64,000 nt of DNA. It comes from Patescibacteria group bacterium (GTDB lineage Bacteria > Patescibacteriota > Minisyncoccia > Moranbacterales > UBA2206). The notes under the pieces are model-generated. The model did not search any database. It was not told the DNA's origin and was given only the letters and a program-made list of their open reading frames with translations. Location of the stretch: contig JAUPKF010000004.1 of assembly GCA_030837625.1 (NCBI GenBank), positions 1,075 through 65,074 on the forward strand, read 5' to 3'. Of the stretch, positions 42,142-45,793 are shown piece by piece (within the stretch, counting starts at the first letter, position 1; each line of letters begins with the position of its first letter). The translations under genes were made by a program, and so were the position numbers.

Positions 42142-43077
42142 TTACTCTCCCGTCAAACTTACGATTCTCGCGAACTCTTCATTCACCATCTTTTGGATTC
42201 GGTCGATGACCGGATTGTTTTTTTCATTGAAAAGATGCTTGAAACGCCCCTGGGTTTTCAAAAATTCCGCAATTGGTTTGGGCTGCGACGGTTCGTGGGT
42301 TATTTTATACTTTCCGTTTTCTCCGCCATAGGCGGATCCGCCTATGGCGGAAATCTCATAAAGTGGCCAGAAATTCGTTTCCGTCGCCAGCTTTGCCACA
42401 TTGACGTATTGCGAAGTGGGAAATTTCCAGTTGTTTTGACAGGGAGAAAAAACATTGAGAAACGACGGCCCTTCCGTTTCCAGCGCCTTCTTGGCTTTCT
42501 TTTTTAAATCTTGGAGATAGGCCACATTGGCCTGAGCGGCGTAAGCGACTCTGTGCGCGTTCACGATTTCCATCAAATTTTTGCGTGTTTCCATTTTACC
42601 AAAAGATTCTTTTCCGGCCGGCGTGGTTTCCGTCGCCGCGCCGTATGGCGTAGCGGATGATCTTTGGTTTCCCGTGTTCATATACCCGCCGTTGTCATAG
42701 CAAACATAAACAAAATCATGCCCGCGTTCCAGCGCCCCCGACAGCGATTGCAAGCCGATGTCGTATGTTCCTCCGTCTCCTCCGAATACAATAAATTTTA
42801 TTCTGCCTTTTATCTTCCCTTTCCTATAAAGAGCTTTGTACGCCCTCTCCACGCCGGAAATCGTCGCCGCCGCGTTTTCAAAAGCGCTGTGAATATAAGG
42901 GACTTTCCAAGCCGAATACGGATAGATGGTCGAAGTAACTTCCAAACATCCGGTCGCATTCGCCACCACGATTGGCGTCTTCGCCTCGCCCAAAATCGTC
43001 CGCACCGCCGCCGGAAACCCGCACCCCGCGCACGAACTATGCCCCTGAGCAAAATGTTTTGTGAGTTCTTTGTTCAT
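42142..43077 (-). CDS. 2-oxoacid:ferredoxin oxidoreductase, beta (TPP-binding) subunit
   Basis: 311 aa with CAGCGFPAAVR and a TPP-binding GDGG-type region (FGGDGGTYDIG). Confidence 0.85.
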   Translation of the reverse strand: MNKELTKHFAQGHSSCAGCGFPAAVRTILGEAKTPIVVANATGCLEVTSTIYPYSAWKVPYIHSAFENAAATISGVERAYKALYRKGKIKGRIKFIVFGGDGGTYDIGLQSLSGALERGHDFVYVCYDNGGYMNTGNQRSSATPYGAATETTPAGKESFGKMETRKNLMEIVNAHRVAYAAQANVAYLQDLKKKAKKALETEGPSFLNVFSPCQNNWKFPTSQYVNVAKLATETNFWPLYEISAIGGSAYGGENGKYKITHEPSQPKPIAEFLKTQGRFKHLFNEKNNPVIDRIQKMVNEEFARIVSLTGE

Positions 43078-43304
43078 TATTTCGACATTTTCGCAAATTT
43101 ATATTCCAACTTCTCTACTCTGGATTCAAGCTCTTTCATTTCGAATTTACGAGCCGTAAAAATCATATCCTGTCTGATTTCCTTCTGACCCCTCTTTAAA
43201 TCATCCATATCCTTTTCAACCCTGTCGAAACGATCATCCACATGATCAAAACTTTTCTTAATCATTCTCGCTAAATCATCAAGATTCATTTCCTTGTTTT
43301 TCAT
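43077..43304 (-). CDS. Small coiled-coil protein (75 aa) interposed between the alpha and beta subunit genes
   Basis: Charged heptad-like sequence. Start overlaps the beta-subunit region. Confidence 0.4.
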   Translation of the reverse strand: MKNKEMNLDDLARMIKKSFDHVDDRFDRVEKDMDDLKRGQKEIRQDMIFTARKFEMKELESRVEKLEYKFAKMSK

Positions 43305-43309
43305 ATTTT

Positions 43310-44449
43310 TTAAGTTAAATAATTACCATTGAATTTCCCCTCCAGAATCTGCTCGATTTGTTTTTTGAAAACGTCCCTTCCTCCCAACCCATAAACTATG
43401 CTACTGGTTTTTATACTTGATACATTATACATACTACATAATACTTCACTGTATATCGCCGGTTTTGAGCCGGAAGAAAGCGAGCGGTCCATAACGATGA
43501 TCTCTTTAGCGTTCTTTAACGCCGCAGATATTTCTTTGTACGGAAACGGCCGAAACAATTCTATTTTCAAAAGACCAACTTTTTCGCCTTTTTTCCGCAA
43601 TTCATCCACCGCGTCTTTGGCGGTTCCGGCCGCCGACCCGGCTATCACCAAAATCTTTTCAGCCTCTTTGGTTTTATATTTTTCAAACAAACCGTATTTT
43701 CTGCCGCTGATTTTTTCATATTCTCCCGTAATTTTTTCATATTCATCCGCGGCTTTCCCCATCGCCTCTTCCTGATCGATTTTAAATTCGAAGTAAACAT
43801 TTTGCAGAGCCAGCGCGCCATATGTTACCGGATTTTCAATATCCAGCAAATGTTTTTCCGGTCTGTATTCTCCCACGAATTTTTTGACTGTCTTGTCGTC
43901 CAGAACTTCCAGATTTTCTACGCTGTGCGACGTATTGAACCCGTCCATAATTACCATCACGGGAAGTTTTACTTTCTCCGCCAGCTTCATCCCGATTATC
44001 GTTTTGTCATAAACTTCCTGGGAATTTTCGCAAAAAATTTGGATCCAGCCGGCGTCTCGCGCCCCCATAACGTCAGAATGGTCGCCGTGAATATTGAGCG
44101 GCGCCGACAATGCCCTCGCGCTGACCAGCATCAAAATCGGCAATCTCATTCCGCTGGCAATGTAAAGTATCTCATTCATCAGCGCCAAACCTTGCGAACT
44201 CGTTGCCGTCACCGTCCGCGCTCCTGCCGCCGATGCTCCCACGGCCGCGCTCATGGCGCTATGTTCCGATTCCACCTCGATCATTTCCGTTTCCGCTTCG
44301 CCATCGGCGCAAAATTTGGCGTAAGTTTCGATGATCGGCGTCTGCGGCGTAATCGGATAAACCGGCATCACATCCGGTTCAATTTGCTTCAAAGCCAAAG
44401 CAGCGGCATATCCGCCAGTAAGCGCCAATTTTTTAGTAGAATGTATCAT
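43310..44449 (-). CDS. 2-oxoacid:ferredoxin oxidoreductase, alpha subunit
   Basis: 379 aa. Typical PorA/KorA alpha-subunit N-terminus GGYAAALALKQIEPDVMPVYPITPQT. Confidence 0.85.
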   Translation of the reverse strand: MIHSTKKLALTGGYAAALALKQIEPDVMPVYPITPQTPIIETYAKFCADGEAETEMIEVESEHSAMSAAVGASAAGARTVTATSSQGLALMNEILYIASGMRLPILMLVSARALSAPLNIHGDHSDVMGARDAGWIQIFCENSQEVYDKTIIGMKLAEKVKLPVMVIMDGFNTSHSVENLEVLDDKTVKKFVGEYRPEKHLLDIENPVTYGALALQNVYFEFKIDQEEAMGKAADEYEKITGEYEKISGRKYGLFEKYKTKEAEKILVIAGSAAGTAKDAVDELRKKGEKVGLLKIELFRPFPYKEISAALKNAKEIIVMDRSLSSGSKPAIYSEVLCSMYNVSSIKTSSIVYGLGGRDVFKKQIEQILEGKFNGNYLT

Positions 44450-44459
44450 GTATAAAGTA

Positions 44460-44834
44460 TCAAGTATTTTTTATTTTCTTAAGTCCAGTAATCAATTTAT
44501 GAACCGTAATTGTTTGACTGGCAACTTTATCAAATTCTTCTTTGCTCAAATATCCTAAATCTCTAGCGATTACCAATTGATTTTGAATTTCCGTCAAAGA
44601 ACCGTGTGACATTGAATAGAATTGACATTTGTCTCTGACTGTAGCCCTGCTGAAACCTTCCGCTATATTCGAAGTTATTGAAACCGCAGCTCTCCTCATC
44701 TGACTAACCAAGCCAAACATTTCTTCTCTTGGAAAATTTTTGGAAATTTTATAAATCATCAACACCAATTTATGCCCTTCCTGCCATGCGTATAAATCTG
44801 TGAATGATTTTATCTTTACTTTTTCTTGAACCAT
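44460..44834 (-). CDS. Four-helix-bundle protein (family of proteins often encoded inside 23S rRNA intervening sequences)
   Basis: 124 aa, ...DLYAWQEGHKLVLMIYKISKNFPREEMFGLVSQMRRAAVSITSNIAEGFSR..., matching the conserved core of that family. Confidence 0.7.
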   Translation of the reverse strand: MVQEKVKIKSFTDLYAWQEGHKLVLMIYKISKNFPREEMFGLVSQMRRAAVSITSNIAEGFSRATVRDKCQFYSMSHGSLTEIQNQLVIARDLGYLSKEEFDKVASQTITVHKLITGLKKIKNT

Positions 44835-44860
44835 ACATAATACATTCTACATAATACATT

Positions 44861-45208
44861 CTACTTTTTCCTCATGACTATCGCCTTAACCGGACAAACT
44901 TCCGCGCAAACCCCACAACCCTTGCAATATTCATAGTCAATGTCAGCTTTGGGTTTCTTATTTTTTTGCTTCATGTCTCGTGTTTCATGTTTCATGTCAA
45001 TCGCCGCTTCCGGACAAAACGGCACGCACGTCGAACAACCGATGCACTTTTCTTTGTCCACCTCCGGCTTCATATACCGCCACTCCCCCGTTTTCGGAGC
45101 TTTTTTGATATTATGTTTTATGATCGCGCCTTCCTCCATAGAAATTTTTAATTTGAAATTTTTAAATTTTAATAAATTTTTAAATTTAAAATTCAATAAA
45201 AATTTCAA
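44861..45208 (-). CDS. 2-oxoacid:ferredoxin oxidoreductase delta subunit (2x[4Fe-4S] ferredoxin)
   Basis: CIGCSTCVPFCP and CKGCGVCAEVCP. Confidence 0.85.
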   Translation of the reverse strand: MKFLLNFKFKNLLKFKNFKLKISMEEGAIIKHNIKKAPKTGEWRYMKPEVDKEKCIGCSTCVPFCPEAAIDMKHETRDMKQKNKKPKADIDYEYCKGCGVCAEVCPVKAIVMRKK

Positions 45209-45223
45209 ATTAAAAATTAAAAA

Positions 45224-45793
45224 TTATACCGTATCGTACGCCTTCTCGATCGCCGCCACATTTTTCTCGCAGTTTTCTTTCCCAATCTTCGCCTCAAAAA
45301 TTTTTCGAAACTCCGCCAGAACGCTTTCCAGCTTCACCATTTCCGTTATTTTCACGATTTTTCCCAAAATCACGGTGTTGGGCCGCGGTTGGCCGATGAT
45401 TTCCAGAGAAATTCCGTTGGCATCCACCGGATAAATCTTGCCTTTGAAATTAAGTTTATGGGAAATATCCGCCGCGGATTTTTTCGTGTTAACAATCAAC
45501 GCTTCATTTTTATCCAGCCCGTCCGTAACTTTAACAGAGTCCAGGAGAGTTTCATCCAAAACGATTACCGCGTCCGGATCAATCACCGGTTCTTTGGTAC
45601 GAATGGCTTTATCGGAAATCCGCAGATAAGTCTTGGTCGGTGCGCCGCTTCTTTCCGGTCCGAAACTGGGAAAAGCCTGGACAAACTTGCCCTCAAGCAC
45701 GGCCGCCTGCGCCAAAATTTCCGCCGCCGTTTTTGCCCCCTGCCCGCCCCGCGCGTGGAAAATTATTTCGAGAATGTCTTTGTGATACTTCAT
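45224..45793 (-). CDS. 2-oxoacid:ferredoxin oxidoreductase gamma subunit
   Basis: 189 aa, HARGGQGAKTAAEILAQAA..., gamma-subunit fold. Confidence 0.85.
   Translation of the reverse strand: MKYHKDILEIIFHARGGQGAKTAAEILAQAAVLEGKFVQAFPSFGPERSGAPTKTYLRISDKAIRTKEPVIDPDAVIVLDETLLDSVKVTDGLDKNEALIVNTKKSAADISHKLNFKGKIYPVDANGISLEIIGQPRPNTVILGKIVKITEMVKLESVLAEFRKIFEAKIGKENCEKNVAAIEKAYDTV

Follow-up and report, generated by a model that had tools for sequence, protein, structure and literature searches.

Between porD and porA of a 2-oxoacid:ferredoxin oxidoreductase (por) operon, the 64,000-nt stretch of contig JAUPKF010000004.1 analysed here (the window), from a Patescibacteria (Moranbacteria) metagenome-assembled genome, carries a gene for a four-helix-bundle (4HB) protein enclosed by inverted arrays of heptamers. 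This insert is very probably an exchange-prone cassette of the intervening sequence (IVS) type, and comparison with related operons shows that it has been gained, lost or exchanged repeatedly at the por junction, independently of host descent. The explanation that best accounts for the data as a whole, and that we favour as probable, is a 4HB cassette of the IVS type, bounded by a stem of ~33 bp, that sits between two cistrons of an mRNA operon rather than in a 23S rRNA helix.

A hairpin-bounded 4HB gene between porD and porA

The ORF list and Pfam profiles give the minus-strand gene order porG, porD, 4HB, porA, ORF X, porB. Pfam calls on the four por genes show the gamma-delta-alpha-beta order to be intact, as the initial annotation had read it, and gene calls and profiles agree with its placement of the 4HB gene between delta and alpha and of a 75-aa ORF (ORF X) between alpha and beta. 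The 4HB gene (44460..44834, minus strand; 124 aa) forms the cargo in the hairpin loop, flanked by porD (44861..45139, minus strand), which encodes the delta, 2x[4Fe-4S] ferredoxin-like subunit (2x Fer4 families), and by porA (43310..44449, minus strand), which encodes the alpha subunit (POR_N, E 2e-75, and PFOR_II). The heptamer repeats already noticed on both sides of the gene consist of five GTAnnnn heptamers each, in inverted orientation: GTAGAAT, GTATTAT, GTAGAAT, GTATTAT and GTATGGT in the 5' arm (44830..44864, minus strand), and GTAGAAT, GTATCAT, GTATAAA, GTATCAA and GTATTTT, in plus-strand reading, in the 3' arm (44436..44470, plus strand). Four coding signals are supplied by these arms, namely the porD stop (gTAGaat, whose TAG is part of the first heptamer) and the 4HB ATG in the 5' arm, and the 4HB stop (TGA, in atactTGAtac) and the porA ATG with its first codons, hence the first residues of PorA, in the 3' arm.

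The arms match over 33 nt, where their complementarity is 85% (94% within a core of 18 nt) and the duplex energy -34.1 kcal/mol, and in the minimum-energy fold of 44420-44880 the 4HB gene is enclosed by the arm-arm stem. A promoter/terminator scan found no terminator on the coding strand of the cassette; a single weak promoter-like match, located in the 5' arm, does not exceed the chance level, and sites are not in excess. Within the window, GTAGAATGTAT with at most one mismatch occurs 8 times against 0.64 expected, a count reached in 0 of 100 shuffles; GTATCAAGTAT has 13 matches against 0.41 expected, and there are 5 period-7 arrays compared with 0-1 across 20 shuffles. Since the same arrangement occurs in two independent assemblies (L001 and L002; related loci carry the prefix L), it is not a misassembly.

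The protein is a member of the TIGR02436/PF05635 (23S_rRNA_IVP) family by both profile score and fold. It scores 125.5 bits against PF05635 (E 1.3e-36; cutoff 33.8) and 113 bits against TIGR02436 (cutoff 24), and the AlphaFold2 model of the monomer is an up-down bundle of four helices (predicted local distance difference test (pLDDT) 89.5). Its best PDB match is 2gsc (XCC0516; 42-44% identity, root-mean-square deviation 0.6-0.8 A, TM 0.81-0.92), followed by 2rld (BT_0352; TM ~0.8) and then by 4dwl and 8ub7, the Avd proteins of diversity-generating retroelements (DGRs). XCC0516 has been reported to be a homopentamer (PMC4990558), and Avd is a pentameric, positively charged, RNA-binding barrel (bioRxiv 10.1101/2023.10.23.563531; PMC4990558). 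Across 22 sequences, 47 of the 124 positions of the 4HB protein are invariant, which indicates purifying selection. The gene, the sole 4HB gene of the window, has a third-position GC content of 0.31, compared with 0.51-0.56 in the por genes; we did not take this low GC as proof of foreign origin, because small lineage-specific genes here are generally AT-rich and the por genes lie above the window median.

Turnover of the cassette in related por operons

An exact-protein look-up of PorA returned only two short Logan contigs, and genomic context was therefore taken from homologues: a PorA profile run over species-representative genomes yielded 80 por loci. Most Moranbacteria-like operons among them are compact (porG-D-A-B) and have no inserts. 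Comparing relatives for presence or absence of the 4HB gene, as the initial annotation had proposed, gave a patchy picture, the gene being found at porD-porA in L004, L005 and L031 only. The closest relative (L003, PorA 84% identical) has a Nudix gene without heptamers at that junction. In other relatives one of three junctions holds a GxxExxY gene, a second TIGR02436 gene, a BrnT/BrnA-like pair (labelled from sequence motifs rather than by a profile search), a sigma-like gene or transporter genes; among all these por-junction inserts, inverted repeats enclose the TIGR02436 and GxxExxY cargos only.

Simple vertical inheritance of the 4HB gene is ruled out by three lines of evidence, which together show repeated exchange at a fixed slot. 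First, its identity is flat: seven por-located 4HB proteins are 67-78% identical in pairwise comparison, uncorrelated with PorA identity (r = -0.12), and in L004 and L005 PorG is 96% and PorB 93% identical while the 4HB proteins share only 70% and the heptamers differ. Second, its distribution is patchy on the neighbour-joining tree of PorA plus PorB, where it appears in at least four separate places and is missing from the nearest kin of the window (L003, L176 and L180). Third, junction fillings are swapped: in L035, L036 and L167 the porD 3' ends and porA cores are near-identical, yet the junctions are filled by an AATTT hairpin, a TAAGACT hairpin and a 4HB cassette, and the PorA N-terminus varies with the filling. 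The closest 4HB homologues (74-84% identity) also lie at porD-porA, although PorA there is only 59-65% identical to that of the window, and in L086 a homologue of 73% identity has unrelated genes on either side. Co-variation of 4HB sequence and heptamer was set aside because it is confounded by host phylogeny; the case of L004, with two 4HB genes and two heptamer types, is anecdotal.

At the porG-porD junction of L004 (L004:3836-4299), a GxxExxY (TIGR04256) gene is flanked by 37-nt inverted arms of TACGAAT/TACTAAT units, and this family, of the PD-(D/E)XK nuclease type, is a second cargo with the same hairpin design. Gene-less heptamer hairpins fill por junctions in many of the insert-free relatives. 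Other wedged genes have no repeats, namely the BrnT/BrnA-like pair, the sigma-like gene with a small ORF and the Nudix hydrolase gene (L020:6219-6786, L018:6267-7491 and L003:1560-1973), and a different palindromic element (cagaaccactgatt...aatcagtggttc, unit ~9-10 nt) occurs in por spacers of a further group of Moranbacteria, namely L003 (L003:1090-1235), L023, L025 and L028.

Heptamer arrays accompany 4HB genes at other loci

A metagenome scan with the 4HB profile added 80 further loci. Some 150 related loci show the cassette to be of a general and swappable kind. Of the 74 metagenome loci open to a shuffling test, most had a flanking inverted-repeat score above that of all 20 shuffles. For 71 distinct loci, most flanks had a best period of 7, one clade having 8, and gene-interior controls for periodicity never rose above 0.61. 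Array orientation could be classified in 41 loci, of which 38 have inverted and 2 direct arrays with 1 tie, at ~4-5 units per arm. The arms of one locus pair far better with each other than do arms of different loci (median score 18 vs 7.5, p = 3e-33, 75 loci); the heptamer sequence drifts, and does so on both sides of a locus together. The elements also have a direction: of 50 cases, 41 have both neighbours in the orientation of the 4HB gene ('++'), 9 are mixed and none is '--', with gaps of 20-100 nt that barely exceed the arrays, and in 60 hairpins (L001-L170) the upstream arm is purine-rich, G(5'):C(3') pairs outnumbering C:G pairs by 377 to 59. This build holds for the majority of the 4HB loci examined, and the gene pairs that they split include carA|carB, secD|secF and pilB|pilC.

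The same build occurs on plasmids of cultured organisms, with CAGGAGT/ACTCCTG in Nostoc punctiforme and GGTTCAA/TTGAACC in Riemerella. In Azospirillum lipoferum AZO_p2 the 4HB gene lies inside a large-subunit rRNA gene (Rfam RF02541, 2537 bits), and heptamers of the CAGAGGA/TCCGTCC type stand inverted on its two sides, which makes the classical rRNA IVS one instance of this type of element. The Nostoc 7120 pCC7120gamma copy has no clear array pattern and was listed among the exceptions.

Three observations concern the units themselves. In some lineages they resemble Shine-Dalgarno/anti-Shine-Dalgarno sequences (AGGAGTA/TACTCCT and CAGGAGT/ACTCCTG). The period-8 clade (L144-L147 and L162; 44-47% identity to the query) has units GTCGTTTA, AAAGTTTC and AGTTGACG. 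In Pseudanabaena galeata pPg_01 (L175:1330-2000) the arrays around the 4HB gene that separates cas6 from cas4 are direct, with ~15 AAAGCTA units upstream and ~10 AAAGCCA units downstream.

Proposed mechanism and alternative explanations

In the mechanism that we propose, the cassette would be co-transcribed with the operon in sense and its stem would form in the polycistronic RNA. RNase III would cut this stem as it does those of rRNA IVSs, which are cleaved mid-stem (PMC4990558), parting porGD from porA-X-B and freeing the 4HB message. The 4HB protein, which is homologous to the pentameric XCC0516 and BT_0352 and related in structure to the RNA-binding Avd barrel, would bind the heptamer arrays, both its own and the gene-less ones, and turnover would proceed by recombination via the arrays or via the conserved porD/porA flanks. 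Processing at the RNA level by RNase III seems to us quite possible, if a little short of probable, and is supported indirectly by the sense-orientation bias, the fixed arm polarity, the lack of a coding-strand terminator and the sequence conservation of the 4HB protein; binding of the heptamers by the protein is offered more tentatively. More speculative again is the idea that heptamer arrays are the cognate nucleic-acid partners of the pentameric TIGR02436 proteins, forming one protein-plus-repeat system that includes IVSs, intercistronic cassettes and gene-less hairpins. The target of such a system would be polycistronic RNA, where it might, for instance, gate translation or cutting by RNase III at the junctions between genes, and it would explain the excess of heptameric repeats in cyanobacteria, Xanthomonas, Beggiatoaceae, Bacteroidota and candidate phyla radiation (CPR) bacteria.

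Several points weigh against an IVS-type cassette working in this way. Mismatches in the 60 hairpins show no sense-strand excess of G:U-compatible pairs (37 vs 35), so that, beyond the strong sense-orientation bias and the arm polarity, nothing tells an RNA stem from a DNA cruciform. The link between the 4HB protein and the heptamers is one of genetic linkage only, and the match of five units to five subunits is numerology, given that array lengths range up to 15 units, with an interquartile range of 3.5-4.9. Direct arrays in 2 of the 41 classifiable elements and in Pseudanabaena mean that a stem is not obligatory. Finally, 4HB relatives at least 74% identical all lie at the porD-porA junction, which could reflect a por-specific role.

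Because the G:U comparison does not discriminate, a mobile element acting at the DNA level stays a serious rival, albeit one that we consider rather improbable. Here the arrays would serve as terminal inverted repeats, or as hairpins of the cruciform or single-strand kind, for a recombinase encoded elsewhere, such as the repetitive extragenic palindrome (REP)-associated tyrosine transposases (RAYTs) or similar enzymes; the 4HB protein would be either cargo or an accessory that binds DNA, and the hairpins without a gene would be derivatives resembling MITEs (miniature inverted-repeat transposable elements). Gain, loss and replacement of the cassette at one site, the many gene-less hairpins of the same heptamer families, the missing G:U signature and the second cargo family, GxxExxY, likewise enclosed in L004, all accord with such an element, as do old proposals that IVSs are remnants of transposition (PMC4990558). 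Against it, no transposase or recombinase adjoins any of the ~150 loci within the DNA retrieved for them, and there is no evident duplication of target sites; arms of tandem heptamers do not resemble the known ends of REP elements or MITEs, and neither the sense-orientation bias nor the fixed purine-rich 5' arm would be expected of a palindrome acting purely as DNA.

That the 4HB protein and ORF X are instead old, fixed and vertically inherited accessory subunits or assembly factors of the enzyme, the repeats being incidental, is unlikely for the pair. The shared junction of the close 4HB homologues, the 47 invariant positions and the confinement of ORF X to the porA-porB junction of por operons are what this would predict, and for ORF X we favour it. 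It is at odds with the 4HB protein, however, whose divergence does not track that of the host, which is polyphyletic on the tree and missing in the nearest relatives, which has the homologue between unrelated genes in L086, and whose family has members in rRNA, cas, car, sec and pil operons. Still less probable is a neutral by-product, in which AT-rich spacers yield arrays by replication slippage and small ORFs are coincidental, with neither function nor mobility: heptameric tandem repeats are indeed over-represented in bacteria, with polymerase slippage proposed as their source (PMC4692102), and arrays occur even within the porA coding sequence, but slippage gives no matched inverted arrays that co-vary across 75 loci and leaves both the association with one protein family and the orientation bias unexplained. 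The idea that the 4HB protein is the Avd of a DGR, suggested by weak matches to PF22296 (28 bits) and NF033474 (22 bits) and by the similarity to 4dwl and 8ub7, was rejected as having almost no likelihood, since both scores lie under the cutoffs (40 and 80 bits), TIGR02436/PF05635 match far more strongly, and neither a reverse transcriptase nor template or variable repeats were seen among the genes of 41266-46966 or in related por loci.

Relation to known elements

The favoured IVS-type cassette shares with the 23S rRNA IVSs of Leptospira, Coxiella burnetii (helix 45) and Azospirillum lipoferum AZO_p2 the protein family in its loop (PMC4990558), terminal inverted repeats with a stem of ~28-33 bp, a sense orientation within the host transcript, a GC content below that of the surrounding genes and a sporadic distribution; with the Azospirillum IVS it also shares inverted heptamer arrays. 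It differs in its host, which is a protein-coding operon between porD and porA instead of rRNA helix 25 or 45, and in arms that contribute stop and start codons to the neighbouring genes. Its 4HB gene is well conserved, whereas the ORF of the Coxiella IVS is decaying, and RNase III excision of the por cassette is putative.

Members of the family have already been described in rRNA IVSs, in CPR rRNA insertions and in scattered cas loci (PMC11270868, PMC3936711). In the cas operons, 23S_rRNA_IVP genes are wedged between linked genes as in the por operon (cmr3|cmr2, and cas6|cas4 in Pseudanabaena), but heptamer arrays and cassette turnover were not described in the report on those genes (Zhang and Ye 2013, PMC3936711), and the Pseudanabaena arrays are direct. 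Intergenic tandem heptamers, sometimes in inverted pairs, also occur in operons and near start codons as the short tandemly repeated repetitive sequences (STRR) of heterocystous cyanobacteria, as GGGAATC in Xanthomonas and as TAACTGA in Beggiatoaceae; their over-representation is known and unexplained, with no linked protein and function left open, whereas the arrays described here come with a particular gene family and take a hairpin geometry (PMC4692102, PMC4679880). The taxa with such repeats include Nostoc, which has 4HB matches in our data, and Xanthomonas, the source of the solved XCC0516. REP elements, bacterial interspersed mosaic elements (BIMEs) and MITEs are similar as dispersed intergenic palindromes between co-transcribed genes, with gene-less copies far outnumbering gene-carrying ones; the arms found here differ from theirs as tandem, lineage-specific 7-mers, and no RAYT or transposase was seen in the fetched loci. 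DGR Avd shares the four-helix-bundle fold, but here there is no reverse transcriptase and no template or variable repeat, and the profile scores lie below the Avd cutoffs. In the literature covered, which was incomplete, we found no published account that links these proteins to heptamer repeats, sets out the matched heptamer-array architecture and how general it is, or reports exchange of cassettes at operon junctions; a prior description of the heptamer flanks is possible.

The association links two puzzles, the 4HB proteins and the heptameric repeats, the gene almost always coming with matched arrays. We know of no function assigned to the widely annotated S23p/IVS 4HB proteins more than 30 years after IVSs were first described. 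The rRNA IVS becomes a special case of a general intercistronic cassette, and for CPR biology the data show that core metabolic operons such as por have hypervariable 'slots' at gene junctions whose fillings donate N-terminal and surface-loop residues to the enzyme.

Array-encoded segments of PorA

A third GTAnnnn array (43410..43444, minus strand), in the orientation of the 5' arm, lies within the porA coding sequence 105 nt upstream of the stop codon, where it encodes the variable loop EVLCSMYNVSSIK, a hypervariable segment that immediately precedes the conserved motif YGLGGRD. Pairing of this array with the 3' arm of the cassette is possible (-32.5 kcal/mol) and probably incidental. The initial annotation had regarded porA as bracketed by inverted copies of an 11-mer; exact copies of GTATCAAGTAT do exist, at 44457-44467 (+) and 43413-43423 (-), a few bases from where they had been placed. 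The upstream copy holds the porA start codon and the downstream copy lies within porA, and porA is therefore not bracketed as a unit. The notion of porA as a bracketed cassette was rejected, the downstream copy forming part of conserved porA coding sequence whose loop is array-encoded in other lineages as well.

The loop before YGLGGRD is encoded by arrays of either orientation in several lineages, by GTAnnnn units in the window (43410-43444) and by ATACCAA-type units in L003 (L003:2944-3123), L004 (L004:5976-6155) and L083 (L083:4322-4501); in L005 (L005:6015-6093) it is a complete in-frame hairpin. Repeat arrays are thus translated into a PorA surface loop, and the cassette arms also contribute N-terminal residues of PorA.

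ORF X at the porA-porB junction

ORF X (43077..43304, minus strand; 75 aa) belongs to an unnamed small-protein family. Its start lies 5 nt past the porA stop, and its own stop overlaps the start of porB (TAATG); no repeats were found in its flanks, and no family in Pfam or NCBIfam matched it. AlphaFold2 predicts a single long helix (residues 8-74, pLDDT 90). The family has 199 representatives at E <= 1e-3, with the pattern LA..(K)GF..V..RF...GQ.EIK...RFE..ELE.RV..LE, and across all DNA fetched for the analysis it was found in por operons only. All homologues with recoverable context (59-61% identity; 95% in L003) lie at the porA-porB junction, in operons whose PorA is 72-84% identical to that of the window, and placement on the tree fits one gain with losses in L004 and L005. 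Besides the copy at porA-porB, the operon of L177 has a 141-aa ORF X paralogue directly upstream of porG (L177:1522-1947).

ORF X had been taken as an insert like the 4HB gene. Its constant junction, its coupling to the neighbouring genes and the lack of repeats instead fit a single gain with later losses, and it looks vertically inherited and translationally coupled rather than a cassette; it is probably a lineage-specific accessory of the enzyme. The view that small cassettes had been inserted into the operon therefore holds for the 4HB gene, which is hairpin-bounded, low in GC, absent from most relatives and replaced at its junction, and fails for ORF X.

Other features of the window

The remaining subunit genes are porG (gamma; 45224..45793, minus strand; PF01558, E 6e-38) and porB (beta, the thiamine pyrophosphate-binding subunit; 42142..43077, minus strand; PF02775 and TPP_enzyme_C). 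With gamma, delta, alpha and beta on one strand, in an order common to ~70 related loci, the operon encodes a four-subunit 2-oxoacid:ferredoxin oxidoreductase of the POR/VOR type; its identity as a pyruvate:ferredoxin oxidoreductase is putative as regards substrate specificity. A promoter-like site (45802..45831, minus strand; TTGGCG-18-TAGAAT with TG), identified by consensus match only, precedes the operon, and the terminator of the upstream DsbA-like gene (45841-45823) lies directly before it. A 115-aa TTG-started ORF at porD was rejected as an artefact of AT-rich spacer.

The porG-porD spacer is filled by a gene-less hairpin of AATTTnn heptamers (45143..45226; 41-nt arms, 80% complementary, -19.5 kcal/mol), a type that also flanks the second 4HB gene in L004. 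A gene-less GTAnnnn hairpin between tRNA-Thr(ggt) and an L33-like ORF (50899..51006; z = -4.45) matches the por cassette in heptamer family and polarity; another GTAnnnn hairpin lies between an ORF stop and tRNA-Gln (30853..30969; z = -4.17), and a hairpin of GTGTTAT-type heptamers lies between two co-directional ORFs (57869..57941). Three heptamer families thus coexist within 64 kb beside one 4HB gene. An Rfam scan of the window at the gathering threshold found tRNAs only and no rRNA. On the 3' side of porB, the interval 42055-42142 holds two 22-nt direct repeats (ACTGTGCAGAGGCTTGATTTAT and ACTATGTAGGGGCTTGATTTAT) and a 26-nt inverted repeat, which probably form a terminator region between porB and the convergent tRNA-Thr(cgt).

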